Virus record (IMG/VR): IMGVR_UViG_2698536428_000001
Coordinates: 1 to 21,453 of that record
Direction: 5' to 3' (one strand)
Source of the DNA: a virus
Taxonomy: Duplodnaviria; Heunggongvirae; Uroviricota; Caudoviricetes
Length of the DNA: 21,453 bases
The notes under the pieces were generated by a model that ran no database searches, was not told where the DNA came from, and worked only from the letters and a program-made list of their open reading frames with translations. Below are positions 1-12,841 of this stretch, piece by piece (position 1 is the first letter of the stretch; each line of letters opens with the position of its first letter). The translations under genes were made by a program, and so were the position numbers.

Positions 1-1
1 A

Positions 2-619
2 ATCACGGGCGGCGACCCCGTGGAAATCAACCCGAAATATGAAAAGCGTTTCACTACGGTAATCAGGGCGGTGGTGCTGGCGACCAATAACAACCCGATG
101 ATATTCACCGAACGGGCCGGAGGCGTGTCACGTCGTCGGGTTATTTTCCGCTTCGACAATATCGTAAGCGAGGCAGAAAAAGACAGGGAGCTACCGGAAA
201 AGATCGCGGCTGAAATCCCAGTCATTATCCGCCGCTTGCTGGCGAACTTTACCGACCCTGAGAAGGCACGGGCTTTACTACTGGAACAGCGTGACGGTGA
301 TGAAGCTCTGGCAATAAAGCAACAGACGGATCCGGTTATTGAGTTTTGCCAGTTCCTGAATTTTCTGGAGGAAGCGCGCGGCCTGATGATGGGTGGCGGT
401 GGCGATTCAGTGAAGTACACGACCAGGAACAGCCTTTACCGCGTCTATCTGGCGTTTATGGCATACGCCGGAAGGAACAAGCCGCTAAACGTGGCTGAGT
501 TCAGCAAAGCTATGAAGCCAGCGGCGAAAGTTTACGGGCATGAATATATTACGCGGAAAGTCAATGGAGTTACGCAGACTAACGCAATAACAACAGACGA
601 TTGCGACGCGTTTTTATAA
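2..619 (+). CDS. Primase/helicase C-terminal region (P4 alpha / PICI Pri-Rep type), 5'-partial at window edge
   Basis: Frame is open from base 2 with no start inside the window (ORF track shows the 20..619 portion). Translation (…VIRAVVLATNNNPMIFTERAGGVSRRRVIFRFDNIV…) resembles the C-terminal domain of P4-family phage/plasmid primases. An iteron array lies immediately downstream, as expected for a rep gene. Confidence 0.55.
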   Translation: MTGGDPVEINPKYEKRFTTVIRAVVLATNNNPMIFTERAGGVSRRRVIFRFDNIVSEAEKDRELPEKIAAEIPVIIRRLLANFTDPEKARALLLEQRDGDEALAIKQQTDPVIEFCQFLNFLEEARGLMMGGGGDSVKYTTRNSLYRVYLAFMAYAGRNKPLNVAEFSKAMKPAAKVYGHEYITRKVNGVTQTNAITTDDCDAFL

Positions 620-629
620 TTTTTTGCAA

Positions 630-860
630 AAGCCCTCTACCTCCTCTACCTGAAAGGAATAAATGCATATTATTCAATATGATAAGTGGGTAGAGGGCCA
701 GGTAGAAGGCTAATAAAAACCCTCTACCTCTTCTACATGATTTTATCAATTCCAGGTAGACAGGTAGAGGTCTGGTAGAAGGGGATTAAAAGCCCTCTAC
801 CATGCTGAAAGGTGCGCCATTGCTGGATTTTTGCAGTGCTTGGTAGAAGGGGTAGAGGGA
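630..860. repeat. Iteron cluster, putative replication origin
   Basis: About 12 copies of an 8-9 bp motif GGTAGAGG / CCTCTACC (variants GGTAGAAGG, GGTAGAC) in both orientations, mostly in pairs 9-12 bp apart (e.g. 634-650, 689-709, 721-736, 754-782, 794-801, 842-859), flanking an AT-rich segment (661-686). Sits directly 3' of the primase gene. Confidence 0.55.
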
Positions 861-906
861 GGGAGGCACAACTCAAAACTTTTTAAACGAGGGGGTAAAA
901 ATAAAA

Positions 907-1164
907 ATGCGCACATCAGGAAAACTTAATAATCAGAAGAAGCAGCATAACCGCGCCATTGACCTTACAGAGCACTGGCTGAGAGTGGCGATAAAAATCA
1001 TCGACCGCAACACGGGGGAAGGATACGCGAAAGCACATCCCGAACTGATAAGCGCATTCATGACCACGGAGGCGGCAAACTTTGCCACGCTGACAGAACG
1101 GGAGATTGCCGAAGCGGAACAGGTAACAACCATCAACGTTAAAACCGGAGAGCAGACAGCATGA
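907..1164 (+). CDS. Hypothetical protein (85 aa)
   Basis: ORF with GAGGGGG Shine-Dalgarno 11 nt upstream of the ATG; stop overlaps the ssb start (ATGA), suggesting translational coupling. No recognisable family. Confidence 0.45.
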   Translation: MRTSGKLNNQKKQHNRAIDLTEHWLRVAIKIIDRNTGEGYAKAHPELISAFMTTEAANFATLTEREIAEAEQVTTINVKTGEQTA

Positions 1165-1571
1165 CAGCACAGATAGCAGCTTACGGGCGGCTGGTGGACG
1201 ACCCGCAGGTAAAACAGACCAGCAAGGGTACACCGATGACGCTGGCGCGTATGGCGGTATCTTTGCCATGCAGTCAGGCACAGGACGGACAGGCAGCGTT
1301 ATGGCTATCAGTCCTGGCATTTGGTAAGCAGGCCGACGCGCTGGCGAGACATGAAAAAGGCGACCTTATCAGCGTGGCGGGTAACATGCAGATCAGCCAG
1401 TGGACCGGACAGAACGGGGAAACGCGGCAGGGTTATCAGGTTATTGCAGACAGCGTAATCAGTGCCCGTGCGGCACGTCCTGGCGGGAACAGACGCAAGA
1501 CCACAGGCACACAGGGTAATCAGCCACCAGCGGGAGGCGATGACCATTACGGTGATGATATTCCGTTCTGA
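1161..1571 (+). CDS. ssb: Single-stranded DNA-binding protein (SSB)
   Basis: 136 aa. N-terminal OB-fold pattern typical of SSB (GRLVDDPQ…TPMTLARMAV…WLSVLAFGKQADALARHEKGDLISVAGNMQISQWT…) and the hallmark acidic C-terminal tail ending DDIPF. GGAGAG RBS upstream. Confidence 0.8.
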   Translation: MTAQIAAYGRLVDDPQVKQTSKGTPMTLARMAVSLPCSQAQDGQAALWLSVLAFGKQADALARHEKGDLISVAGNMQISQWTGQNGETRQGYQVIADSVISARAARPGGNRRKTTGTQGNQPPAGGDDHYGDDIPF

Positions 1572-1581
1572 GGGGGTGAGG

Positions 1582-1854
1582 ATGGTACATGACCGCATAG
1601 CGGAGGAACTCGAGGCAAAAGGCTTTTACCGGAGGGCGGCGGCACGATGGGGTGAAGTCATGCAACTGGTGGAGACAGACAAGGAACGGCATCAGGTTAC
1701 GATGCGACGGCTGGAATGTTCCAGGAAGGCACAGAAGCCACCGGAGCCGCCGGATAACTTCGGAGACCTGAGAAAGGCAGTAGATCGCACTTATGCTGAA
1801 ATGGGTATAGATGGTGTAAGCGATGAAATATGGCGTAATTACCCAGACAGCTAA
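1582..1854 (+). CDS. PerC-family transcriptional regulator-like protein (90 aa)
   Basis: ATG at 1582 preceded by a strong RBS (GAGGGGGTGAGG). N-terminus MVHDRIAEELEAKGFYRRAAARWGEVMQ resembles PerC/Pch-family activators as I recall them. The longer ORF from 1462 overlaps ssb and lacks an RBS. Confidence 0.45.
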   Translation: MVHDRIAEELEAKGFYRRAAARWGEVMQLVETDKERHQVTMRRLECSRKAQKPPEPPDNFGDLRKAVDRTYAEMGIDGVSDEIWRNYPDS

Positions 1855-1861
1855 TCAATAG

Positions 1862-1884
1862 CCGGAGTAATCCGGCTTTTTTGT
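1862..1884 (+). terminator. Rho-independent terminator
   Basis: Stem GCCGGA / TCCGGC with GTAA loop followed by TTTTTT, just after the perC-like stop. Confidence 0.7.
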
Positions 1885-1889
1885 ACCCA

Positions 1890-1933
1890 AAAAAAGCCCG
1901 ATAAGTACAGGAGGCATCTTATCGGGCTTTTGC
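1890..1933. terminator. Bidirectional terminator-like hairpin
   Basis: 10-bp stem GCCCGATAAG / CTTATCGGGC flanked by an A7 run on the 5' side and TTTTG on the 3' side. Confidence 0.5.
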
Positions 1934-2010
1934 ATATGAGGTTTTTTTTGGTGCACTGACACACATGATCTGGATCATCATTTCATAATTTGCAACACAA
2001 CTCAACATCA

Positions 2011-2038
2011 TTGCATAAAATGCAATCATGATTATAAT
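2011..2038 (+). promoter_or_regulatory. Sigma70-type promoter for the capsid-paralog operon
   Basis: TTGCAT (2011-2016), 16-bp spacer, perfect TATAAT (2033-2038), about 55 nt upstream of the first operon ORF. The -35 lies inside the palindrome ATTGCAT-AAA-ATGCAAT. Confidence 0.5.
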
Positions 2039-2043
2039 CAGAT

Positions 2044-2059
2044 CTGGATGAACATCCAG
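2044..2059. promoter_or_regulatory. Putative operator (perfect inverted repeat CTGGATG-AA-CATCCAG)
   Basis: Perfect 7-bp inverted repeat immediately downstream of the -10 element, overlapping the predicted transcription start. Has CTG-N10-CAG spacing but is off the LexA consensus. Confidence 0.4.
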
Positions 2060-2094
2060 TTATGATTTTTTAAGTCAAAGAGGAATTTCTTACT

Positions 2095-2301
2095 ATGGCT
2101 GAAGAGAAAAAAGGCGGTGTTTCGGTGTACATAAGCCCCGACATCGTGAAGGCGCTCAAGGAACGCCACCAGCAGAACGTAAAAGCAGGCATTGCGGCAG
2201 GACTTGATCCGCTGGCGATGGTTGAGCCGTCAACAGGCTGGCAGGTACGCGCCTATTTACGCGCGGCGCTGGGTATGAATCAGGTTCACGGGGGTGAATA
2301 A
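2095..2301 (+). CDS. Hypothetical protein (68 aa), first gene of the capsid-paralog operon
   Basis: ATG preceded by AAGAGGAA RBS. Stop TAA overlaps the ATG of the next gene (TAATG), suggesting translational coupling. Confidence 0.5.
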   Translation: MAEEKKGGVSVYISPDIVKALKERHQQNVKAGIAAGLDPLAMVEPSTGWQVRAYLRAALGMNQVHGGE

Positions 2302-3356
2302 TGACAGTAAAAGCAATATCACTTAACACTAACCAGCTTTTTGCGTACCTGAATCGCGAGGATATTGCGGAATTTAAATTCAGTCCGCTGTTTACCGCGC
2401 TGTTTTTCCCGAACGTGGCGACATTCAACACACAGGACATCATGTTAGATAACCTGGATATTGAAGAAGTCACTATGTCGGCGTTTTGTTCGCCTATGGT
2501 GGGTAGCCAGGTTCAGCGCGATAAAGGGTACGAAACAAGCATTATTCGCCCTGGCTACATGAAGCCAAAACACGAAATCGATCCATTAAAAACAATAATG
2601 CGCATGGCTGGAGAAGATCCGGCACAGCTTAACGACCCTACCTACCGCCGTATGCGCCTGATTACTGGCAACATGCGCCGCCAGATAAACGCCATTAAAG
2701 CGCGCGTGGAATGGCTGGCGGTAAATGCGGTAACGACCGGAAAAAACATCATTGAGGGCGAAGGCATAGAGCGCTATGAAATCGACTGGAAGATACCGGA
2801 AAAAAACATCATAGAGCAGGCCGACGGTAAAAAATGGTCAGAGCAGGACAAAGACATACACGACCCAATCTATGACATTGAGCTATACGCAGATCAGGCA
2901 GGTTGCCCCGCAAACGTCATGATTATGGGCGTTGATGTATGGCGCATGTTACGCAGCTTTAAAAAATTCCGTGAACTGTACGATCTCTCCCGTGGTTCAG
3001 AATCCGCCGCAGAGCTGGCATGTAAAAACCTGGGAGAAGTGGTGAGCTTTAAAGGCTATCTTGGTGATCTGGCCCTTATCGTCTATTCCGGCAAATACAC
3101 TGACAGCGACGGCACAGAAAAATATTTCCTTGAGCCTGATTTGCTGGTCCTGGGCAACACCAACAATAAAGGGCTGGTGGCCTATGGTGCGATTATGGAA
3201 CAGGAAGCGGTAAGAACGGGCGCAACGCAAAACATGTTTTACCCGAAAAACTGGATTGAAGACGGCGATCCGGCGATTGAGTACGTGCAGACACACAGCG
3301 CACCGCAGCCTGTTCCGGCAGATATTCGCAAATTTGTTACCGTCAAAATTGGTTAA
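2301..3356 (+). CDS. Major capsid protein, divergent paralog of lambda gpE
   Basis: 351 aa, colinear with lambda gpE (341 aa) along its whole length, with conserved blocks such as PGY(M/V)KPKHE, DP.YRR.R.I and YPKNW; roughly 35-45% identity by eye. Clearly distinct from the lambda E copy at 8427-9452. Confidence 0.8.
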   Translation: MTVKAISLNTNQLFAYLNREDIAEFKFSPLFTALFFPNVATFNTQDIMLDNLDIEEVTMSAFCSPMVGSQVQRDKGYETSIIRPGYMKPKHEIDPLKTIMRMAGEDPAQLNDPTYRRMRLITGNMRRQINAIKARVEWLAVNAVTTGKNIIEGEGIERYEIDWKIPEKNIIEQADGKKWSEQDKDIHDPIYDIELYADQAGCPANVMIMGVDVWRMLRSFKKFRELYDLSRGSESAAELACKNLGEVVSFKGYLGDLALIVYSGKYTDSDGTEKYFLEPDLLVLGNTNNKGLVAYGAIMEQEAVRTGATQNMFYPKNWIEDGDPAIEYVQTHSAPQPVPADIRKFVTVKIG

Positions 3357-3358
3357 CG

Positions 3359-3703
3359 GTGGATTCTATGAACACTCCATACATTGAGTTATTTGCAGGC
3401 AGTCAGCAGGTATCAACGACGCTGGTACATTTTGCCGCTGATGCTGGCGTTATTCAGGAATTTACCCCGCTGATGCTGGCGGACAATGGCGAGTTTAAGC
3501 CGTGGGATGGTCAGGAATCTGGCAAGGCTGTTTATCTGACCTCGTACCCCGTTGACACGTCGACGCAGAAATCAGCACAGTGCTATAAGACGGGGATATT
3601 CAATATCGCCGCCGTTAACTGGCCTGAGAGCGTCGACACCGATGCGAAAAAATGCGCCGCCTTTGCGGGTTCTGGCGTATCCGTTCAGCCGCTGGCCAGA
3701 TAA
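3359..3703 (+). CDS. Capsid decoration protein, divergent paralog of lambda gpD
   Basis: About 111-114 aa. Aligns with lambda gpD (110 aa): TPLMLADNGEFKPWDG versus [17 protein letters not shown], and C-terminal KKCAAFAGSGVSVQ versus [14 protein letters not shown]. Start is either GTG 3359 or ATG 3368; the RBS is weak for both. Confidence 0.75.
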   Translation: MDSMNTPYIELFAGSQQVSTTLVHFAADAGVIQEFTPLMLADNGEFKPWDGQESGKAVYLTSYPVDTSTQKSAQCYKTGIFNIAAVNWPESVDTDAKKCAAFAGSGVSVQPLAR

Positions 3704-3715
3704 GCAGGGGGAACG

Positions 3716-4129
3716 ATGGCAACGAATGAAAGCATCATGGCGCTACCGCTGGCGAGTAAATTTAAAGCCGAAGCGCGGGCAATGGCTGACAGAGGGTTAT
3801 CAACCTACGAGGCCGTATATCAACTCAACAAACTGGAAGAACAGGACAAGCCGCGCGCTGATGCGATTATGGCGCTTCATGAACATAACGACTATCAGCC
3901 GCTGTTACGTGCAATGGCAAACGTGCCATGTATTAGCGTCGATAATGCTCGTGAAATCCTGAACATGACCATAGAGCAGGAGCGCCCAAAGGTTGCACCA
4001 GAGCTTACCGCAGCCTTTGAAAACTTTATGGACATGCACAGCCCGCAAGCCGTATCAGCTGGCATGGCATACGATGGCAGAAACCAGGGCGATGACGGCG
4101 ACATCGATCACATACTGAAAACCATCTGA
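3716..4129 (+). CDS. Hypothetical protein (137 aa), last gene of the capsid-paralog operon
   Basis: ATG preceded by a GGGGGA RBS and followed by a strong terminator. No recognisable similarity to lambda FI/FII or other families by eye. Confidence 0.5.
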   Translation: MATNESIMALPLASKFKAEARAMADRGLSTYEAVYQLNKLEEQDKPRADAIMALHEHNDYQPLLRAMANVPCISVDNAREILNMTIEQERPKVAPELTAAFENFMDMHSPQAVSAGMAYDGRNQGDDGDIDHILKTI

Positions 4130-4135
4130 GACAAG

Positions 4136-4159
4136 GCCGGAGAAATCCGGCTTTTTTTT
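4136..4159 (+). terminator. Rho-independent terminator
   Basis: Stem GCCGGA / TCCGGC with GAAA loop followed by T8. Confidence 0.75.
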
Positions 4160-4160
4160 A

Positions 4161-4228
4161 CGGGTCCTTTCCGGCATATGGACCCGTTACGGGGCGGCGA
4201 CCTCGCGGATTTTCGCTATTTATGAGAT
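4161..4228 (+). other. Lambda-type cos segment copy 1 (cosQ-side flank, cosN, proximal cosB), rightward orientation
   Basis: Contains the lambda 12-nt cohesive-end sequence GGGCGGCGACCT (4192-4203) within GTTACGGGGCGGCGACCTCGCGGATTTTCGCTATTTATGA, nearly identical to the lambda cosN region as I recall it (…GGGCGGCGACCTCGCGGGTTTTCGCTATTTATGAAAATTTTCCGG…). Confidence 0.7.
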
Positions 4229-4241
4229 TTTTTGAGGGGGT

Positions 4242-4387
4242 GGTTGTTGTTTAATTGTTTGGTATATCTAATTGATAAGTAAGGTAAAAATAAAATAAAT
4301 ACAACAACCTTACGATGTATTTTGATGTCATTAATGTGAAAAAATTCAATGATATCAAATGGTTTTGTAAAAACACATGGTTGTTGT
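4242..4387. repeat. GGTTGTTGT repeats (two direct, one inverted) in the AT-rich core; candidate cosB R-like sites for cos copy 1
   Basis: GGTTGTTGT at 4242-4250 and 4379-4387, inverted ACAACAACC at 4300-4308. An IHF-like TATCAAATGGTTT lies near 4349-4361. Spacing from cosN is on the same scale as the lambda R3-I1-R2-R1 arrangement. Confidence 0.35.
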
Positions 4388-4563
4388 ATCGCGTATTTGA
4401 TGGCGTAACAGAAAGTGATTTTTAACTTTACCGCTCTGTAACTACGGATTATTCCATGCTGGCACGGAGAACGGCTACGGCATGACGCCACCCAGCCTAT
4501 ACAGAACAGTAAAGCCGATAAATTGTTAATCACGCGCAGCAATGCGTGTGATTTTTGCACACT

Positions 4564-4677
4564 TCCGGTTAACGGGTACGATGTCCGGTTTTAGTGTCTG
4601 TTTTTTGCGCATGTCCGGTTCATAGAAAGCATGTTTTTATATTTTTCATATGGTTAACTTGCAGAGAAACCGGACAT
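4564..4677. repeat. ATGTCCGGTT repeats (two direct, one inverted, one partial); candidate cosB R-like sites for cos copy 2
   Basis: ATGTCCGGTT at 4581-4590 and 4611-4620, inverted AACCGGACAT at 4668-4677, partial TCCGGTT at 4564-4570. They sit on the cosB side of the minus-oriented cosN, with AT-rich DNA between the inverted and direct copies. Confidence 0.4.
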
Positions 4678-4691
4678 GGATCCCGGAAAAT

Positions 4692-4759
4692 TTTCATAAA
4701 TAGTGAAAAACCGCGAGGTCGCCGCCCCGTAACGGGCCATAATTCCAGGAAGGACCCGA
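4692..4759 (-). other. Lambda-type cos segment copy 2, leftward orientation
   Basis: The reverse complement reads GGCCCGTTACGGGGCGGCGACCTCGCGGTTTTTCACTATTTATGAAAATTTTCCGG, matching the lambda left-end sequence through about 50 nt. Plus-strand cosN complement AGGTCGCCGCCC is at 4716-4727. Forms a ~68-bp imperfect inverted repeat with 4161-4228. Confidence 0.7.
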
Positions 4760-4791
4760 CGACACCAGACTATCAGAGCGATGGGGGCACA

Positions 4792-5073
4792 ATGACAGAA
4801 GCCGAAATACTGGGATTAATCCGCCGTGCTGGTGGAATCAGCCAGCAGGTTGACGAACAGGCCACGCAGCCGGACAGCGTGACAGCCGAAAATTATGCGC
4901 GTGTTGTTGCTGAGGTGATGCGCCGTGATGGTATCCAGCTTAATGGCGTGGATATGCGCAACATACGAACCAGAGTTCTTGAGTTGCTGGCCTACCGTCG
5001 CCGCGTGGAGATGTATCGGGAGAAGGAGAAAATAACGTACCACTGGAAGAAGCCGGAGCGGTTGCGGCGGTAA
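4792..5073 (+). CDS. Hypothetical protein (93 aa) adjacent to cos
   Basis: ATG at 4792 preceded by a GGGGG RBS; basic, Arg-rich C-terminus. The longer ORF from 4594 starts in AT-rich non-coding-looking DNA and is less likely. Confidence 0.45.
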   Translation: MTEAEILGLIRRAGGISQQVDEQATQPDSVTAENYARVVAEVMRRDGIQLNGVDMRNIRTRVLELLAYRRRVEMYREKEKITYHWKKPERLRR

Positions 5074-5425
5074 CTGGTTGATATTCCCGACGGCCCAAAA
5101 ATGGGTTGGCTACACCACTCACAACTACGACATTTTCGCAGTTTAATTAATGGTCAGCTTAATCGCTAACCCGCTGATATTTTCGGAAACCTCAATTTGA
5201 GGAAGTCGGCGCGGTAACTTGCTGATATTCCCGATAACGCAAAATTGCGCTGGCTGGCAGAGTGCAAATTTGCACGATGGCCTAACCCATTGATTCTTTC
5301 GAAAACCCCCATTGGGGGAGAACGGGGGAATAAACCTGACTCATTGATTCTTCCACAATCCTCAATTTGAGGAAGTCGGCGCGGTAACTCGCTGAACTTT
5401 AAGCAAAGCGCAAAATTGCGCTTGC
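5062..5425. repeat. Three imperfect direct repeats (core CGGCGCGGTAACTNGCTGA…) with embedded palindromes
   Basis: Copies at about 5064-5100, 5188-5250 and 5358-5425. The last two share about 60 bp, including CCTCAATTTGAGGAAGTCGGCGCGGTAACT and GCAAAATTGCGC. Confidence 0.6.
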
Positions 5426-5956
5426 TGAATAATCATTATGATTACGCAGATGATTAAGGAATGACCGAAGGCGGAAATTCGCCTGTGGTTAATGGGGGAG
5501 TTGCAGATCTGCAACTCGACCATGAAACTACGGAAACTACCCGTAGTTTGGGTAGTAAGAGTAACACCCAGATTTTGGGGCTTACTCGTGATACCCAAAT
5601 TTGGGGTATCGGTGGCAACCATAACGACTTTCGTTACGGTTGATGCTTTTACCCCATTGGGGGAAAGGTATTACGATAATCATAACACCTACCGAACAGG
5701 TAAAGCCCACCAGCCTGATTAACGTTTAACCGGAAAAAAATTCCGGTAGGTGGGGATCCCTATATCGACATTAACGCCCACTAAAACTGTGCATATATGC
5801 ATAGAAAAAGCATCCACCAGCTTTATGACGGATGCCGCTCATCTTATAAATAATCGTGTATTGCAGTGTGTATTGCGACTCCTTTAAACGATAGGTCTGA
5901 GCATTCGTAATGTACTGTTTTTAAATTTTATTTTTTCCTGTCTTTTCATAAAAGCC

Positions 5957-6730
5957 ATGTATGCCGCCACCATTGAAAGTGAGCTGGATACGCAGTCAGC
6001 GATGGATTTTATTCTGGGCGCGAACAGTCAGGAGCAGCGGGAAAGGCTGACGGGCTGGATTGGTGAAATTGCCGCGTATTACGCCGCAGCACCGGTCCGT
6101 CTGGGAGGCGCAAAAGTGCCGCACCTGATGCCGGGGGACTCACTGAACCTGCAGACGGCTCAGGACACGGATAACGGCTACTCCGTGTTTGAGCAGTCAC
6201 TGTTGCGGTATATCGCTGCCGGGCTGGGTGTCTCGTATGAGCAGCTTTCCCGGAATTACGCCCAGATGAGCTACTCCACGGCACGGGCCAGTGCGAACGA
6301 GTCGTGGGCGTACTTTATGGGGCGGCGAAAATTCGTCGCATCCCGTCAGGCGAGCCAGATGTTTCTGTGCTGGCTGGAAGAGGCCATCGCTCGCCGCGTG
6401 GTGACGTTACCTTCAAAAGCGCGCTTCAGTTTTCAGGAAGCCCGAAGTGCCTGGGGGAACTGCGACTGGATAGGCTCCGGTCGTATGGCCATCGATGGTC
6501 TGAAAGAAGTACAGGAAGCGGTGATGCTGATAGAAGCCGGACTGAGTACCTACGAGAAAGAGTGCGCAAAACGCGGTGACGACTATCAGGAAGTTTTTGC
6601 CCAGCAGGTCCGTGAAACGATGGAGCGCCGTGCAGCCGGTCTTAAACCGCCCGCCTGGGCGGCTGCGGCATTTGAATCCGGGCTGCGACAATCAACAGAG
6701 GAGGAGAAGAGTGACAGCAGAGCTGCGTAA
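5957..6730 (+). pseudogene. B: Portal protein gene B, 3' fragment (about C-terminal 257 of 533 codons)
   Basis: Translation matches the C-terminal half of lambda gpB as I recall it, and the 3' end overlaps the C start by 20 nt as in lambda. Sequence immediately upstream (5760-5955) is AT-rich and unlike lambda B coding DNA, so the lambda homology appears to begin near 5955. Confidence 0.7.
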
Positions 6731-8029
6731 TCTCCCGCATATTGCCAGTATGGCCTTTAATGAGCCGCTGATGCTTGAACCCGCCTATGCGCGGGTTTTC
6801 TTTTGTGCGCTTGCAGGCCAGCTTGGGATCAGCCGCCTGACGGATGCGGTATCCGGCGACAGCCTGACTGCCGGAGAGGCACCCGCGGCGCTGGCGTTAT
6901 CCGTTGATGATGACGGACCACGACAGGCCCGCAGTTATCAGGTCATGAACGGCATCGCCGTGCTGCCGGTGTCCGGCACGCTGGTCAGTCGGACGCGGGC
7001 GCTGCAGCCGTATTCGGGGATGACCGGTTACAACGGCATTATCGCCCGTCTGCAACAGGCTGCCAGCGACCCGATGGTGGACGGCATTCTGCTCGATATG
7101 GATACGCCAGGCGGGATGGTGGCAGGGGCATTTGACTGCGCTGACATCATCGCCCGTGTGCGTGACATAAAGCCGGTATGGGCGCTGGCAAGCAACTGAA
7201 CTGCAGTGCAGGTCAGTTGCTTGCCAGCGCCGCCTCCCGACGTCTGGTCACGCAGACCGCCCGGACAGGCTCCATCGGCGTCATGATGGCTCACAGTAAT
7301 TACGGTGCTGCGCTGGAGAAACAGGGCGTGGAAATCACGCTGATTTACAGCGGCAGCCATAAGGTGGATGGCAACCCCTACAGCCATCTACCGGATGATG
7401 TCCGGGAAACACTGCAGTCCCGGATGGATGCAACCCGCCGGATGTTTGCACAGAAGGTGTCGGCATATACCGGCCTGTCCGTGCAGGCTGTGCTGGATAC
7501 CGAGGCTGCAGTGTACAGCGGTCAGGAGGCCATTGATGCCGGACTGGCTGATGAACTTGTTAACAGTACCGATGCGATCACCGTCATGCGTGATGCACTG
7601 GATGCACGTAAATCCCGTCTCTCAGGAGGGCGAATGACCAAAGAGACTCAATCAACAACTGTTTCAGCCACTGCTTCGCAGGCTGACGTTACTGGCGTGG
7701 TGCAAGCGACGGAGGGCGAGAACGCCAGCGCTGCGCAGCCGGACGTGAACGCGCAGATCACCGCAGCGGTTGCGGCAGAAAACAGTCGCATTATGGGGAT
7801 CCTCAACTGTGAGGAGGCTCACGGACGCGAAGAACAGGCACGCGTGCTGGCCGAAACCCCCGGTATGACCGTGGAAACGGCCCGCCGCATTCTGGCAGTT
7901 GCACCACAGAGTGCACAGGCGCGCAGTGACACTGCGCTGGATCGTCTGATGCAGGGGGCACCGGCACCGCTGGCTGCAGGTAACCCGGCATCTGATGCCG
8001 TTAACGATTTGCTGAACACACCAGTGTAA
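6711..8029 (+). pseudogene. C: Head protease/scaffold gene C, disrupted by a frameshift near 7180-7199
   Basis: GTG start at 6711 gives MTAELRNLPHIASMAFNEPLML… (lambda gpC). The reading frame ends at TGA 7197-7199 (…KPVWALASN*) and gpC sequence continues in another frame from 7178 (…QLNCSAGQLLASAASRRL…). The span is 1319 nt, not a multiple of 3; lambda C is one ORF of 1320 nt as I recall. Confidence 0.7.
7424..8029 (+). CDS. nu3: Scaffolding protein Nu3 (in-frame internal start within the 3' part of C)
   Basis: ATG at 7424 (MDATRRMFAQKVSAYTGLS…), 201 aa, ending at the C stop as in lambda. Lies downstream of the C frameshift, so it is intact. Confidence 0.75.
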   Translation: MDATRRMFAQKVSAYTGLSVQAVLDTEAAVYSGQEAIDAGLADELVNSTDAITVMRDALDARKSRLSGGRMTKETQSTTVSATASQADVTGVVQATEGENASAAQPDVNAQITAAVAAENSRIMGILNCEEAHGREEQARVLAETPGMTVETARRILAVAPQSAQARSDTALDRLMQGAPAPLAAGNPASDAVNDLLNTPV

Positions 8030-8038
8030 GGGATGTTT

Positions 8039-8371
8039 ATGACGAGCAAAGAAACCTTTACCCATTACCAGCCGCTGGGCAACAGTGACCCGGCTCATAC
8101 CGCAACCGCGCCCGGCGGATTGAGTGCGAAAGCGCCTGCAATGACCCCGCTGATGCTGGACACCTCCAGCCGTAAGCTGGTTGCGTGGGATGGCACCACC
8201 GACGGTGCTGCCGTTGGCATTCTTGCGGTTGCTGCTGACCAGACCAGCACCACGCTGACGTTCTACAAGTCCGGCACGTTCCGTTATGAGGATGTGCTCT
8301 GGCCGGAGGCTGCCAGCGACGAGACGAAAAAACGGACCGCGTTTGCCGGAACGGCAATCAGCATCGTTTAA
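8039..8371 (+). CDS. D: Head decoration protein gpD
   Basis: 110 aa, [27 protein letters not shown]…[11 protein letters not shown]; matches lambda gpD as recalled. Confidence 0.9.
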
Positions 8372-8392
8372 CTTTACCCTTCATCACTAAAG

Positions 8393-8413
8393 GCCGCCTG
8401 TGCGGCTTTTTTT
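8393..8413 (+). terminator. Intergenic D-E stem-loop with T-run (attenuator/terminator-like)
   Basis: GCCGC-CTGT-GCGGC followed by T7, between D and E. Confidence 0.4.
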
Positions 8414-8426
8414 ACGGGATTTTTTT

Positions 8427-9452
8427 ATGTCGATGTACACAACAGCCCAGCTGCTGGCGGCAAATGAGCAGAAATTTAAGTTTGATCCGCTGTTTCTGCG
8501 TCTCTTTTTCCGTGAGAGCTATCCCTTCACCACGGAGAAAGTCTATCTCTCACAAATTCCGGGACTGGTAAACATGGCGCTGTACGTTTCGCCGATTGTT
8601 TCCGGTGAGGTTATCCGTTCCCGTGGCGGCTCCACCTCTGAATTTACGCCGGGATATGTCAAGCCGAAGCATGAAGTGAATCCGCAGATGACCCTGCGTC
8701 GCCTGCCGGATGAAGATCCGCAGAATCTGGCGGACCCGGCTTACCGCCGCCGTCGCATCATCATGCAGAACATGCGTGACGAAGAGCTGGCCATTGCTCA
8801 GGTCGAAGAGATGCAGGCAGTTTCTGCCGTGCTTAAGGGCAAATACACCATGACCGGTGAAGCCTTCGATCCGGTTGAGGTGGATATGGGCCGCAGTGAG
8901 GAGAATAACATCACGCAGTCCGGCGGCACGGAGTGGAGCAAGCGTGACAAGTCCACGTATGACCCGACCGACGATATCGAAGCCTACGCGCTGAACGCCA
9001 GCGGTGTGGTGAATATCATCGTGTTCGATCCGAAAGGCTGGGCGCTGTTCCGTTCCTTCAAAGCCGTCAAGGAGAAGCTGGATACCCGTCGTGGCTCTAA
9101 TTCCGAGCTGGAGACAGCGGTGAAAGACCTAGGTAAAGCGGTGTCCTATAAGGGGATGTATGGCGATGTGGCCATCGTCGTGTATTCCGGACAGTACGTG
9201 GAAAACGGCGTCAAAAAGAACTTCCTGCCGGACAACACGATGGTGCTGGGGAACACTCAGGCACGCGGTCTGCGCACCTATGGCTGCATTCAGGATGCGG
9301 ACGCACAGCGCGAAGGCATTAACGCCTCTGCCCGTTACCCGAAAAACTGGGTGACCACCGGCGATCCGGCGCGTGAGTTCACCATGATTCAGTCAGCACC
9401 GCTGATGCTGCTGGCTGACCCTGATGAGTTCGTGTCCGTACAACTGGCGTAA
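8427..9452 (+). CDS. E: Major capsid protein gpE
   Basis: 341 aa starting MSMYTTAQLLAANEQKFKFDPLF…; matches lambda gpE as recalled along its entire length. Confidence 0.92.
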   Translation: MSMYTTAQLLAANEQKFKFDPLFLRLFFRESYPFTTEKVYLSQIPGLVNMALYVSPIVSGEVIRSRGGSTSEFTPGYVKPKHEVNPQMTLRRLPDEDPQNLADPAYRRRRIIMQNMRDEELAIAQVEEMQAVSAVLKGKYTMTGEAFDPVEVDMGRSEENNITQSGGTEWSKRDKSTYDPTDDIEAYALNASGVVNIIVFDPKGWALFRSFKAVKEKLDTRRGSNSELETAVKDLGKAVSYKGMYGDVAIVVYSGQYVENGVKKNFLPDNTMVLGNTQARGLRTYGCIQDADAQREGINASARYPKNWVTTGDPAREFTMIQSAPLMLLADPDEFVSVQLA

Positions 9453-9454
9453 TC

Positions 9455-9481
9455 ATGGCCCTTCGGGGCCATTGTTTCTCT
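9455..9481 (+). terminator. Intergenic E-FI stem-loop (ATGGCCC-TTCG-GGGCCAT) with U-rich tail
   Basis: Perfect 7-bp stem with tetraloop directly after the E stop; partial terminator or RNA-stability element. Confidence 0.35.
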
Positions 9482-9493
9482 GTGGAGGAGTCC

Positions 9494-9892
9494 ATGACGA
9501 AAGATGAACTGATTGCCCGTCTCCGCTCGCTTGGTGAACAACTGAACCGTGATGTCAGCCTGACGGGGACGAAAGAAGAACTGGCGCTCCGTGTGGCAGA
9601 GCTGGAAGAGGAGCTTGATGACACGGATGAAACTGCCGGTCAGGACACCCCTCTCAGCCGGGAAAATGTGCTGACCGGACATGAAAATGAGGTGGGATCA
9701 GCGCAGCCGGATACCGTGATTCTGGATACGTCTGAACTGGTCACGGTCGTGGCACTGGTGAAGCTGCATACTGATGCACTTCACGCCACGCGGGATGAAC
9801 CTGTGGCATTTGTGCTGCCGGGAACGGCGTTTCGTGTCTCTGCCGGTGTGGCAGCCGAAATGACAGAGCGCGGCCTGGCCAGAATGCAATAA
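9494..9892 (+). CDS. FI: DNA-packaging protein gpFI
   Basis: 132 aa, MTKDELIARLRSLGEQLNRDVSL…; GGAGGAG RBS; matches lambda FI. Confidence 0.88.
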   Translation: MTKDELIARLRSLGEQLNRDVSLTGTKEELALRVAELEEELDDTDETAGQDTPLSRENVLTGHENEVGSAQPDTVILDTSELVTVVALVKLHTDALHATRDEPVAFVLPGTAFRVSAGVAAEMTERGLARMQ

Positions 9893-9903
9893 CGGGAGGC
9901 GCT

Positions 9904-10278
9904 GTGGCTGATTTCGATAACCTGTTCGATGCTGCCATTGCCCGCGCCGATGAAACGATACGCGGGTACATGGGAACGTCAGCCACCATTACATCCGGTG
10001 AGCAGTCAGGTGCGGTGATACGTGGTGTTTTTGATGACCCTGAAAATATCAGCTATGCCGGACAGGGCGTGCGCGTTGAAGGCTCCAGCCCGTCCCTGTT
10101 TGTCCGGACTGATGAGGTGCGGCAGCTGCGGCGTGGAGACACGCTGACCATCGGTGAGGAAAATTTCTGGGTAGATCGGGTTTCGCCGGATGATGGCGGA
10201 AGTTGTCATCTCTGGCTTGGACGGGGCGTACCGCCTGCCGTTAACCGTCGCCGCGGAAAGGGGGATGTATGGCCATAA
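9904..10278 (+). CDS. FII: Head-tail joining protein gpFII, with 7-codon C-terminal extension relative to lambda
   Basis: Matches lambda FII (117 aa, ending …PAVNRRR), but the codon at 10255-10257 is GGA where lambda has its stop as I recall. The ORF continues GKGDVWP to TAA 10276-10278 and overlaps the Z start. Confidence 0.8.
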   Translation: MADFDNLFDAAIARADETIRGYMGTSATITSGEQSGAVIRGVFDDPENISYAGQGVRVEGSSPSLFVRTDEVRQLRRGDTLTIGEENFWVDRVSPDDGGSCHLWLGRGVPPAVNRRRGKGDVWP

Positions 10279-10847
10279 AAGGTCTTGAGCAGGCCGTTGA
10301 AAACCTCAGCCGTATCAGCAAAACGGCGGTGCCTGGTGCCGCCGCAATGACCATTAACCGCGTTGCTTCATCCGCGATATCGCAGTCTGCGTCACAGGTT
10401 GCCCGTGAGACAAAGGTACGCCGAAAACTGGTAAAGGAAAGGGCCAGGCTGAAAAGGGCCACGGTCAAAAATCCGCAGGCCAGAATCAAAGTTAACCGGG
10501 GGGATTTGCCCGTAATCAAGCTGGGTAATGCGCGGGTTGTCCTGTCCCGCCGCAGGCGTCGTAAAAAGGGGCAGCGTTCATCCCTGAAAGGTGGCGGCAG
10601 CGTGCTTGTGGTGGGTAACCGTCGTATTCCCGGCGCGTTTATTCAGCAACTGAAAAATGGCCGGTGGCATGTTATGCAGCGTGTGGCCGGGAAAAACCGT
10701 TACCCCATTGATGTGGTGAAAATCCCGATGGCGGTGCCGCTTACCACGGCGTTTAAACAGAATATTGAACGGATACGGCGTGAACGTCTTCCGAAAGAGC
10801 TGGGCTATGCGCTGCAGCATCAACTGAGAATGGTAATAAAGCGATGA
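10269..10847 (+). CDS. Z: Tail completion protein gpZ
   Basis: 192 aa, MAIKGLEQAVENLSRISKTAVPG…; matches lambda Z. Confidence 0.88.
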   Translation: MAIKGLEQAVENLSRISKTAVPGAAAMTINRVASSAISQSASQVARETKVRRKLVKERARLKRATVKNPQARIKVNRGDLPVIKLGNARVVLSRRRRRKKGQRSSLKGGGSVLVVGNRRIPGAFIQQLKNGRWHVMQRVAGKNRYPIDVVKIPMAVPLTTAFKQNIERIRRERLPKELGYALQHQLRMVIKR

Positions 10848-11239
10848 AACATACTGAACTCCGTGCAGCCGTACTGGATGCACTGGAGAAGCATGACACC
10901 GGGGCGACGCTTTTTGATGGTCGCCCCGCTGTTTTTGATGAGGAAGATTTTCCGGCAATTGCCGTTTATCTCACCGGCGCTGAATACACGGGCGAAGAGC
11001 TGGACAGCGATACCTGGCAGGCGGAGCTGCATATTGAAGTTTTCCTGCCTGCTCAGGTGCCGGATTCAGAGCTGGATTCGTGGATGGAGTCCCGGATTTA
11101 TCCGGTGATGAGCGATATCCCGGCACTGTCAGATTTGATCACCAGTATGGTGGCCAGTGGCTATGACTACCGGCGCGACGATGATGCGGGCCTGTGGAGT
11201 TCAGCCGATCTGACTTATGTCATTACCTATGAAATGTGA
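10844..11239 (+). CDS. U: Tail terminator protein gpU
   Basis: 131 aa, [30 protein letters not shown]…; ATGA overlap with Z. Confidence 0.88.
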
Positions 11240-11246
11240 GGACGCT

Positions 11247-11987
11247 ATGCCTGTACCAAATCCTACAATGCCGGTGAAAGGTGCCGGGACCACCCTGTGG
11301 GTTTATAAGGGGAGCGGTGACCCTTATGCGAACCCGCTTTCAGACGTTGACTGGTCGCGTCTGGCAAAAGTTAAAGACCTGACGCCCGGCGAACTGACCG
11401 CTGAGTCCTATGACGACAGCTATCTCGATGATGAAGATGCAGACTGGACTGCGACCGGGCAGGGGCAGAAATCTGCCGGAGATACCAGCTTCACGCTGGC
11501 GTGGATGCCCGGAGAGCAGGGGCAGCAGGCGCTGCTGGCGTGGTTTAATGAAGGTGATACCCGTGCCTATAAAATCCGCTTCCCGAACGGCACGGTCGAT
11601 GTGTTCCGTGGCTGGGTCAGCAGTATCGGTAAGGCGGTGACGGCGAAGGAAGTGATCACCCGCACGGTGAAGGTCACCAATGTGGGACGTCCGTCGATGG
11701 CAGAAGATCGCAGCACGGTGACGGCGACAACCGGCATGACGGTGACACCCGCCAGTGCTTCCGTAGTGAAAGGGCAGAGCACCACGCTGACCGTGGCATT
11801 CCAGCCGGAGGGCGCAACCGACAAGAGCTTCCGTGCGGTGTCTGCGGATAAAACAAAAGCCACCGTGTCGGTCAGTGGTATGACCATCACCGTGAAAGGT
11901 GTTGCTGCAGGCAAGGTCAACATTCCGGTCGTATCTGGTAATGGTGAGTTTGCTGCGGTTGCAGAAATCAACGTCACCGCCAGTTAA
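11247..11987 (+). CDS. V: Major tail protein gpV
   Basis: 246 aa from ATG 11247 ([22 protein letters not shown]…), including the C-terminal Ig-like region. Confidence 0.9.
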
Positions 11988-12002
11988 TCCGGAGAGTCAG
12001 CG

Positions 12003-12425
12003 ATGTTCCTGAAAACCGAATCATTTGAACATAACGGTGTGACCGTCACGCTTTCTGAACTGTCAGCCCTGCAGCGTATTGAGCATCTCGCCCTGATGAA
12101 ACGGCAGGCAGAACAGGCGGAGTCAGACAGCAACCGGAAGTTTACTGTGGAAGACGCCATCAGAACCGGCGCGTTTCTGGTGGCGATGTCCCTGTGGCAT
12201 AACCATCCGAAGAAGACAAAGCTGCCTTCCATGAATGAAGCCGTTAAACAGATTGAGCAGGAAGTGCTTACCACCTGGCCCACAGAGGCAATTTCTCATG
12301 CTGAAAACGTGGTGTACCGGCTGTCCGGTATGTATGAGTTTGTGGTGAATGATGCTCCTGAACAGGCAGAGGACGCCGGGCCTGCAGAGCCTGTTTCTGC
12401 GGGAAAGTGTTCGACGGTGAGCTGA
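12003..12425 (+). CDS. G: Tail assembly chaperone gpG
   Basis: 140 aa, MFLKTESFEHNGVTVTLSELSALQRIEHLALMKRQ…; ends …SAGKCSTVS. Confidence 0.88.
   Translation: MFLKTESFEHNGVTVTLSELSALQRIEHLALMKRQAEQAESDSNRKFTVEDAIRTGAFLVAMSLWHNHPKKTKLPSMNEAVKQIEQEVLTTWPTEAISHAENVVYRLSGMYEFVVNDAPEQAEDAGPAEPVSAGKCSTVS
12401..12407 (+). other. Programmed -1 ribosomal frameshift slippery heptamer G GGA AAG (G to GT fusion)
   Basis: GGGAAAG sits 6 codons before the G stop. The -1 frame continues open into the T reading frame (…G K V F D G E L S F…). Confidence 0.8.
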
Positions 12426-12841
12426 GTTTTGCCCTGAAACTGGCGCGTGAGATGGGGCGACCCGACTGGCGCGCCATGCTTGCCGGGATGTCATCCACGG
12501 AGTATGCCGACTGGCACCGCTTTTACAGTACCCATTATTTTCATGATGTTCTGCTGGATATGCACTTTTCCGGGCTGACGTACACTGTGCTCAGCCTGTT
12601 TTTCAGCGATCCAGAGATGCATCCGCTGGATTTCAGTCTGCTGAACCGGCGCGAGGCTGACGAAGAGCCTGAAGATGATGTGCTGATGCAGAAAGCGGCA
12701 GGGCTTGCCGGAGGCGTTCGTTTTGGCCCGGACGGGAATGAAGTTATCCCCGCTTCCCCGGATGTGGCGGACATGACGGAGGATGACGTAATGCTGATGA
12801 CAGTATCAGAAGGGATCGCAGGAGGAGTCCGGTATGGCTGA
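12408..12841 (+). CDS. T: T-frame portion of tail assembly chaperone gpGT (expressed as a G-T fusion via -1 frameshift)
   Basis: Open frame from the slippery site to 12841 encoding …FDGELSFALKLAREMGRPDWRAMLAGMSSTEYADWHRF…; no independent start expected. Confidence 0.8.

Follow-up and report, generated by a model that had tools for sequence, protein, structure and literature searches.

The window, the whole stretch of 21,453 nucleotides that was analysed, begins inside a reading frame for a replication protein, and all genes of positions 1-5073 are on the plus strand. The following features were found at its left end:

1-619, plus strand: 3' end (205 codons and stop) of a PICI replication initiator gene, from Pfam, TIGR01613 and PHROG matches
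About 326-592, plus strand: predicted origin-binding winged-helix domain of the initiator (residues about 109-197), from homology to PDB 1KA8
620-906, no strand: predicted origin of replication, 12 iterons with the core GGTAGA, from motif count and alignment to the EcCICFT073 ori
634-641, 643-650, 721-728, 730-737 (degenerate) and 794-801, minus strand: iterons, from the motif
689-696, 701-708, 755-762 (degenerate), 763-770, 774-781, 842-849 and 851-858, plus strand: iterons, from the motif
907-1164, plus strand: small ORF of 85 aa, orf85, from PHROG 1231
1161-1571, plus strand: short single-stranded DNA-binding protein (SSB) of 136 aa, from PF00436, TIGR00621 and PHROG 44
1582-1854, plus strand: PerC-family transcriptional regulator of 90 aa, from PF06069
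1860-1883, plus strand: intrinsic terminator 1, a stem of 7 bp rich in G+C with a 4-nt loop, followed by a T-run, from a terminator scan and folding
1892-1931, no strand: bidirectional terminator 2, an A-run and a T-run flanking a 14-bp stem with the core GCCCGATAAG/CTTATCGGGC, from folding

The initiator ORF is open at the left edge of the window and its stop codon occupies 617-619. The 3' end of a primase-helicase gene had been recognised here in the original prediction, and the protein family matches bear this out. The 205-residue fragment scores 22.5 bits with Pfam Pox_D5 (cutoff 21.4) and matches both PHROG 864 'DNA primase' (1.9e-59) and TIGR01613 'phage/plasmid primase, P4 family'. The TIGR01613 score of the fragment, 41.6 bits, is below the cutoff of 108.7 because the fragment is truncated, with the SF3 core upstream of the window. 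The full-length homologue of CFT073, which is 96% identical in the shared part, reaches 110.2 bits with the same model and has D5_N and DUF5906 domains. Proteins of 584 aa with D5_N, DUF5906 and Pox_D5 are 96-100% identical to the fragment at the C-terminus, and the database annotation is 'DNA primase family protein' (P4 alpha / D5-type SF3 helicase family). Searching the protein database with the fragment itself gave partial proteins only and no full-length initiator.

The helicase part of the earlier assignment is supported by the CFT073 homologue, which matches PDB 7OLA over the helicase core (E 3.8e-15), a staphylococcal self-loading helicase (Qiao 2022, PMC9371898). The primase part stands less firmly. 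Residues 1-150 of the homologue match no Pfam family, primase or other, and residues 1-200 gave no match in the PDB at E values up to 10; self-priming is therefore putative. At the other end of the protein, the homologue matches PDB 1KA8, the P4 origin-binding domain, over 89 residues (E 1.1e-6). A Foldseek search with the AF2 model also gave 1KA8 as the best match (probability 1.00, TM 0.62), the confidence of the winged helix being moderate (pLDDT 66-81). From both comparisons, the C-terminal domain of the initiator is predicted to be a homologue of the winged helix by which P4 alpha binds its origin.

The first iteron, at 634, directly follows the stop codon, giving the order initiator gene then ori. 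Exact GGTAGARG is found in 10 copies, both strands combined, all inside 634-858 and nowhere else in the window; the chance expectation for the whole 21.4 kb is 0.61 copies, and none of 100 shuffles reached 10. Two degenerate iterons, TGTAGAAG on the minus strand at 730-737 and GGTAGACA on the plus strand at 755-762, give a total of 12, the approximate number originally read from the sequence around an AT-rich segment. This segment, a spacer of 38 bp (651-688) in which G+C makes up 24% (76% A+T), is located between the minus-strand pair 634/643 and the plus-strand pair 689/701, and it is the presumed site of melting. The iterons lie mostly in pairs, 8-12 bp apart. The arrangement of iterons and spacer agrees with the PICI ori in the legend of Fig. 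2a of PMC6092414. The iteron positions are kept in nine E. coli relatives as well as in Rosenbergiella and Symbiopectobacterium, and both the GGTAGA core and the positions persist in other genera where protein identity has dropped to 55-64%. Scans of 620-906 for the DnaA-box and IHF consensus gave nothing beyond chance.

Region 620-906 aligns with the experimentally tested ori of EcCICFT073, the test having been made on an ori whose iterons are of the alternative allele, GGTAGA[C/T]A, and not of that of the window. The minimal replicon of EcCICFT073 is pri plus ori; a pri-ori plasmid was maintained, and once pri or ori had been deleted its maintenance was lost or lowered (PMC6092414, Fig. 2). 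The lowered maintenance after deletion of the homologous region speaks against reading the repeats of 634-858 as mainly an operator or promoter array for orf85, ssb and perC, used for autoregulation by the initiator or by another repressor, rather than as an origin. That reading takes its appeal from the position of the repeat cluster directly upstream of orf85 and from the block 860-906, which includes the ribosome-binding site and is invariant in three aligned relatives. Iteron-binding initiators also commonly autoregulate. The scan for sigma-70 promoters in 1-2400, however, found none where 2.6 were expected, and it is with the type and allele of the replicase that the repeats vary, not with the genes downstream. 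A mainly regulatory array is accordingly considered improbable, and the repeats are treated here as an origin. The operator and origin roles of such repeats can coexist.

The original prediction of a coupled small ORF after the origin was correct. The TGA of orf85 overlaps the ATG of the SSB gene as ATGA at 1161-1164. The ORF belongs to PHROG 1231, a family of unknown function (1.4e-46), with no match in Pfam or NCBIfam, and its AF2 model is helical with low confidence (pLDDT 63). Its homologues form 161 protein clusters, nearly all from Escherichia, Shigella and Citrobacter and named 'hypothetical' or 'prophage protein', and the gene follows the ori in 83 of 90 relatives.

The SSB consists of an OB fold, a linker of approximately 25 residues and an acidic tip, and ends in GDDIPF, as had been noted for its DDIPF tail. 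It matches PF00436 (2e-16), TIGR00621 (59.6 bits, cutoff 53.95) and PHROG 44, and SSB structures in the PDB match it down to E 1e-11. In comparison with E. coli SSB, the OB fold is 25% identical and the aromatic residues aligned to W54, F60 and W88 are conserved. The gene is present in 73 of the 90 relatives, where the tail consensus is GD[D/N/G/E]IPF. It is counted as accessory because about one fifth of the relatives (17/90) do not have it. Having a DDIPF tip like that of the host, the SSB might recruit the partners of host SSB, or titrate them, while a helper infects the cell.

The SSB had originally been described as followed by terminators. Two terminators are indeed present at 1860-1931, but a gene that had been missed, perC at 1582-1854, lies in between. 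Its product matches PF06069 with 151.8 bits (6.3e-45) over profile positions 1-89 of 90. PerC is also annotated in CFT073 and other relatives, the gene being found in only 25 of the 90. Together, orf85, the SSB and PerC are classed from the sequence comparisons as variable accessories. The hairpin of terminator 1 (1860-1877) and its T-run fold with -12.5 kcal/mol (z -3.9). For terminator 2 the folding energies are -20.5 kcal/mol (plus strand, z -4.8) and -23.6 kcal/mol (minus strand, z -5.2), and none of 200 shuffles folded equally well.

Decay is seen in some relatives, with a frameshifted SSB in an annotated one (L007), a primase truncated by IS66 (L008) and an IS1 insertion (H12), and the module of the window could likewise be a non-functional remnant whose repeats and genes are kept only by descent. 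This is highly unlikely, given that the four ORFs of 1-1933 are all intact within the window, that 10 of the 12 iterons are exact to consensus and that the C-terminal 205 aa of the initiator are 100% identical to an intact 582-aa protein of another island.

Positions 1-2100 are 89.6% identical in nucleotide sequence to EcCICFT073 of E. coli CFT073 and fully colinear with it; a second E. coli PICI is 94.9% identical to the module. EcCICFT073 is the prototype Gram-negative cos PICI (Fillol-Salom et al. 2018, PMC6092414) and has the gene order int, alpA-type HTH ... primase, ori, small ORF, SSB, PerC, capsid, which from the primase onwards is identical to that of the window. Both elements also have their 11-12 iterons at equal distances from the stop codon, share the A+T-rich spacer and have two cos sites further downstream. 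The two elements differ in the iteron allele (GGTAGA[G/A]G in the window, GGTAGA[C/T]A in EcCICFT073), in initiator residues 165/166/168 (A165/E166/S168 against N/D/G) and in the ori, which is only about 75% identical with flanks above 90%. They also differ in integration site, which is lambda gene B for the island of the window and between roxA and phoQ for EcCICFT073. Two inverted cos-like copies were considered as a new invertible element; this was rejected, since they correspond to cos1 and cos2, already published for EcCICFT073. Among 5426 complete E. coli genomes, as many as 1624 (about 30%) carry matching DNA. In the relatives L001, L002 and L009, int and alpA are found upstream, a part which for the island analysed here would lie, together with attL and the 5' part of the initiator gene, beyond the left edge of the window.

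The initiator is also in the same family as alpha of phage P4 (TIGR01613), with a C-terminal winged helix homologous to 1KA8, and P4 is likewise a satellite replicon with an origin of 8-bp iterons and a multifunctional initiator. P4 alpha is approximately 190 aa longer, with a recognised N-terminal primase domain, whereas the homologues of the window initiator are without a detectable primase domain. P4 uses TGTTCACC iterons and requires a second cis site (crr). The window, in contrast, has a single iteron cluster directly 3' of the gene, with no further iteron copy and so no sign of a second cluster (crr) in the 21 kb downstream, and has no other P4 genes. The initiator family, together with the presence of lambda-like cos, E-like and D-like genes in an element contiguous with lambda late genes, might suggest a P4-type satellite or a prophage replication region, lambdoid or other, instead of a PICI. 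Gene order and nucleotide identity nevertheless fit EcCICFT073 and not P4, no lambda O/P-type replication genes are among the families identified in 1-5950, and the Rfam scan of 1-6200 at gathering threshold gave no RNA family, P4-type immunity RNAs included. Phage records likewise gave no match to 1-5950 beyond short cos-like pieces. A P4 or prophage origin of the module thus has very little probability, and assignment to a PICI is preferred. The SaPIs with Pri-Rep-ori (SaPIbov1, SaPI1, SaPI5), which are Gram-positive PICIs, resemble the element of the window in that the helicase core of its initiator family is homologous to the staphylococcal 7OLA. They differ from the window in having no nucleotide similarity to it, in that Pri and Rep are often separate genes and in that they are without the linked orf85, SSB and PerC. 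Initiator-iteron specificity in SaPIs likewise varies between islands.

The boundary of the island is visible on the right side. Positions 5951-13000 are 98.1% identical to lambda (J02459 3658-10708), beginning inside gene B, which picks up again at about 5948-5957. The abrupt start of lambda within a gene indicates an insertion, and the left 5.95 kb of the window is judged to be PICI DNA. The originally proposed separation of a satellite-type replicon from lambda DNA is therefore upheld by the synteny with EcCICFT073 on one side and the lambda identity on the other. In all, 1-1933 is very probably the replication zone of a PICI of the EcCICFT073 family, inserted in the portal gene, B, of a lambda prophage.

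With PICI DNA up to 5950 and lambda from inside gene B, the element looks like a helper-embedded PICI (HE-PICI; PMC10111431), as judged from the right junction. HE-PICIs sit within a late gene of lambda type, which they interrupt and whose orientation they share (Tommasini, Mageeney & Williams 2023, PMC10111431). The portal fragment of the window restarts at position 238 of Pfam Phage_portal_2, close to the published site B:Phage_portal_2:241, and the replication zone of HE-PICIs is given as Primase/DUF5906/SSB (PMC10111431). One relative, L009, has the complete HE-PICI configuration. The element would thus be physically inside its probable helper, not separate from it. A capsid-forming PICI (cf-PICI) was considered and set aside, as the island carries only E-like and D-like genes. 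The finding separates satellite from lambda DNA and identifies the window as holding a PICI that sits in the portal gene of its helper. The use of this is in annotation, with no new biology added: the module type, the origin architecture and the function are already known from publications, and since the type is well described and the origin has been tested in a close relative, the finding is correct but ordinary.

Replication of the island would be expected to proceed as follows. Helper induction would, according to the literature, lead to expression of the initiator Pri-Rep from the rightward PICI operon. The C-terminal winged helix, as its homology suggests, would bind the GGTAGA iterons just 3' of its own gene, and the opposed iteron pairs flanking the 38-bp spacer may position an SF3-type self-loading helicase, by which the spacer would be melted and unwound. 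This would take place without DnaA or DnaB/DnaC, as suggested by the helicase family, the lack of DnaA and IHF sites and the sufficiency of pri and ori in EcCICFT073. The PICI SSB would coat the unwound strands, its E. coli-like DDIPF tip probably engaging host replisome proteins that interact with SSB. The product of orf85 would be a conserved partner, and PerC is presumably an accessory regulator with no function in replication. The two terminators would end the module before the capsid and packaging module.

The iterons occur in two variants, GGTAGAnG and GGTAGAnA, which co-vary with residues 165 and 168 of the initiator in 92 of 93 loci, the single exception being locus L038. These statistics are drawn from IMG/VR loci, and the scan of genome contigs contributed four loci only, which serve as distant outgroups. 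The allele of the window, 'G8', has A165/S168 with GGTAGA[G/A]G, and the alternative in E. coli PICIs has N165/G168 with GGTAGAnA. Linkage with iteron type reaches an r2 of up to 0.95 at three nonsynonymous sites and decays on both sides, and it is higher at these sites than at synonymous sites nearer the ori. Where the replicase is of another kind (AAA_25/RepA type), as in one relative, the iterons at this position are other ones too, AAAGTGGG, and homology to the window restarts inside orf85.

Replicon specificity appears to be set by a cassette of approximately 380 bp, the recognition helix and the iterons, where the initiator part is the start of the winged-helix recognition helix at residues 165-168. 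More tentatively, and with some doubt on our side, the cassette (about 492-869, the last 130 nt of the initiator and the iterons) may recombine, with selection pairing at least two alleles and thereby defining specificity groups. If true, such groups would let co-resident PICIs replicate without cross-activation or competition; up to six matching places are found per genome. The covariation of residues and iterons is confounded by tight physical linkage. What the analysis adds is modest, namely a hypothesis, open to testing, on how residues of the initiator specify bases of the iterons.

The replication module occupies positions 1-1933. ORFs and other features were read from the sequence of 1-2400.

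Features of the replication module (window coordinates)
Left edge to 617-619 (stop), plus strand: 3' end of the initiator gene, 205 residues; Pfam Pox_D5 above the curated cutoff, TIGR01613, PHROG 864
634-858, both strands: iteron array with ten exact copies of GGTAGARG
907-1164, plus strand: orf85, a small ORF of 85 codons; ATGA overlap with the SSB start
1161-1571, plus strand: SSB gene, 136 codons; PF00436 (2e-16), TIGR00621 above cutoff; C-terminus GDDIPF
1582-1854, plus strand: PerC-family gene, 90 codons; PF06069 (6.3e-45); between the SSB gene and the terminators
1860-1877, plus strand: terminator hairpin with a T-run; folds far better than shuffled sequences
1892-1931, both strands: terminator hairpin between an A-run and a T-run; beats shuffled sequences by far on each strand

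The observation behind the original prediction was confirmed. The ORF at the left edge is the primase/helicase 3' end that had been proposed, with matches to the P4 family of phage/plasmid primases (TIGR01613) and to a PHROG family labelled 'DNA primase' (864). About 12 iterons had been described around an AT-rich segment. The ten GGTAGARG copies all lie in 634-858, with no copy elsewhere in the whole window; shuffled sequences average 0.61 copies and none of 100 reached ten. Two degenerate copies, at 730-737 and 755-762, are found where relatives carry good iterons, at the same position or within a base, and the total is therefore twelve. To the left of the 38-bp spacer at 651-688 (24% G+C) is a pair of minus-strand iterons (634 and 643), and to its right is the first pair on the plus strand (689 and 701). 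The coupled small ORF and the SSB with a DDIPF tail were also found as described. The SSB was said to be followed by terminators; both hairpins are present but the PerC-family gene intervenes, the sole omission. The intergenic region that separates the terminators from the capsid module (1936-2094) is A+T-rich, at about 30% G+C; it has a palindrome at 2011-2025, TTGCATAAAATGCAA, as well as repeated GATCTGGAT motifs, and may be a regulatory site or the promoter of the late/packaging operon of the island.

Window positions 1-2100 align colinearly, at 89.6% identity, with 1383377-1385467 of E. coli CFT073; identity to an island of another E. coli is 94.9%. The CFT073 locus is EcCICFT073, the prototype of the phage-inducible chromosomal islands (PICIs) of Gram-negative bacteria. 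Its gene order is int, HTH (alpA-type), small genes, DUF4222, a 584-aa 'DNA primase family protein', small ORF, SSB, PerC, major capsid and decoration protein, and the second island has the same order. Of 5426 complete E. coli genomes, 1624 contain at least a partial match to 1-2100, and 257 of these contain most of the segment. The colinearity with EcCICFT073, together with lambda identity that begins only at 5951, supports the interpretation of the left part as a separately replicating satellite rather than lambda DNA. A pri-ori plasmid of EcCICFT073 is kept at the restrictive temperature, and deletion of pri or ori abolishes or reduces its maintenance (Fillol-Salom et al., PMC6092414); the cloning experiment proposed with the original prediction has thus already been done on a close relative. 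The family to which the module belongs is very common and has been published and characterised by experiment, so the module is already known.

Across the shared 205 residues the window fragment has 96% identity to the full-length CFT073 homologue and 100% to the protein of the SY033 island. The CFT073 homologue contains the D5_N, DUF5906 and Pox_D5 domains and scores above the TIGR01613 cutoff. Comparison with solved structures pairs its residues 194-432 with 7OLA (E 3.8e-15), which originates from work on self-loading helicases of staphylococci (PMC9371898), and its residues 488-576 with the origin-binding domain of the phage P4 alpha protein, 1KA8 (E 1.1e-6). The AlphaFold model obtained for the window fragment is modest in quality (pLDDT 57 for the whole fragment, 66-81 for the C-terminal domain); it places helices at 111-122, 145-155 and 164-177, with a beta hairpin at 184-193. 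The best PDB match of this model is also 1KA8 (probability 1.00, TM 0.62), followed by weak matches to winged-helix domains of Cdt1 and ORC/Cdc6. Residues 1-150 of the CFT073 homologue (10865-11314 of its locus) match no Pfam family and no PDB chain at E up to 10; 'primase' is therefore an annotation derived from the family name of the helicase part.

Iteron offsets from the stop codon are nearly constant in nine E. coli relatives (15, 24, 70, 82, 102, 111, 145, 156, 176, 224 and 233). All nine keep the GGTAGA core, with the last two bases being either [G/A]G, as in the window, or [C/T]A, as in CFT073. Between the two types the ori is only about 75% identical, against more than 90% in the flanks. 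The core is also kept in Rosenbergiella (64% protein identity) and Symbiopectobacterium (55%). In 93 loci comprising the primase 3' end and ori, 80 of them from IMG/VR, iteron position 8 varies in step with fragment residues 165 and 168, which in the model are placed at the start of the helix preceding the wing.

Initiator residues 165/168 and the base at iteron position 8
A/S: G, 47 loci
N/G: A, 41 loci
N or Q, other genera: A, 3 loci
A/S, locus L038: A, 1 locus

L038 (IMG/VR UViG_3300029303_000153), the sole A165/S168 pairing with A at position 8 among the 93, has the appearance of a recombinant whose breakpoint falls within the last ~100 nt of the gene. It could serve as a natural test of tolerance to a mismatch of initiator and iteron. 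Linkage of each site with iteron type was scanned in 79 distinct sequences.

Linkage (r2) of sites with iteron type
Over 160 nt upstream of the stop: 0.3 or lower
Three nonsynonymous sites in codons 165/168: 0.95
Synonymous sites nearer the ori: 0.04-0.90
Within the ori, 630-869: 0.5-0.9
Beyond 870: no higher than 0.4
Beyond 960: about 0.1, with a local rise to 0.3-0.4 at 1110-1169

The pattern fits a specificity cassette of about 380 bp, comprising initiator residues and iterons, that would be held together by selection; it may also reflect simple linkage. That the repeats belong to the initiator has independent support from locus L009 of an E. coli genome, a closely related helper-embedded PICI, where an AAA_25/RepA-type replicase followed by AAAGTGGG iterons (11203-12870) is found at the place of the P4-type initiator and GGTAGA iterons. 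L009 keeps orf85, SSB and PerC, and its homology to the window does not start again until 961, within orf85. No DnaA-box or IHF consensus was found in the ori, which agrees with a self-loading initiator.

The genes after the ori vary among the 90 relatives with enough downstream sequence. Most frequent is orf85 with SSB (47/90), followed by orf85, SSB and PerC (25/90), orf85 only (11/90) and SSB only (1/90); six of the 90 have none of the three, and one annotated relative has a frameshifted SSB. The published functional fragment is described as the rep gene plus ori (PMC6092414), and on that description orf85, SSB and PerC are outside the minimal replicon. Compared with E. coli SSB, the window SSB is only 25% identical but keeps the aromatics aligned to W54, F60 and W88. 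The tip consensus in relatives is GD[D/N/G/E]IPF. Because of what is established for the E. coli SSB tip, it is reasonable to infer that the PICI SSB would recruit host SSB partners in this way; no experiments on an SSB from a PICI turned up in literature text searches. The orf85 product belongs to PHROG 1231 (labelled unknown function), is predicted with low confidence to form a helical bundle, and has homologues largely confined to Escherichia, Shigella and Citrobacter. Reports on PerC homologues of PICIs are mixed, with LEE activation, no effect or LEE repression.

The separate element sits within a prophage that is its likely helper. Positions 5951-13000 are 98.1% identical to and colinear with lambda 3658-10708, starting inside gene B (portal), and in 1-5950 matches to phage records are confined to cos-like pieces. 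The portal frame resumes at about 5948-5957, at Phage_portal_2 (Pfam) position 238. This right junction is within the window; the left junction and integrase fall outside it. The full arrangement is seen in L009: portal N-terminus, int, HTH, Bro, replicase, small ORF, SSB, PerC, capsid, terS, portal C-terminus and then the rest of the lambda-type late genes. Such an arrangement is that of a helper-embedded PICI, for which site B:Phage_portal_2:241 is listed and Primase, DUF5906 and SSB are placed in a 'replication zone' (Tommasini et al. 2023, PMC10111431). The right junction of the island fits that layout, its position 238 being near the listed 241.

The PICI has its own head genes, an E-like capsid (351 aa) and a D-like decoration protein (114 aa) within 2301-3703, and the prophage has D (112 aa) and E (350 aa) within 8033-9452; the window thus holds two sets of lambda-type head genes. 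An inverted pair of lambda-cos-like sites at 4161-4232 and 4687-4758 (72 nt each, 85% complementary, 454 nt apart) corresponds to the published cos1 and cos2 of EcCICFT073. In L009 and another relative, L002, a 'terminase small subunit' gene lies between the cos-like sites, whereas the window has an A+T-rich stretch there. The longest ORF in this stretch is 4216-4560 (minus strand, 114 aa), and resemblance to CFT073 is limited to a 72-nt piece. A family of direct repeats is found at 5067-5427, in the non-coding DNA that separates the last PICI ORF from the lambda junction, with three 60-nt copies (at 5166, 5282 and 5336) and 45-nt and 19-nt families that contain CTCAATTTGAGGAAGTCGGCGCGGTAACT and CGCAAAATTGCGC hairpins.
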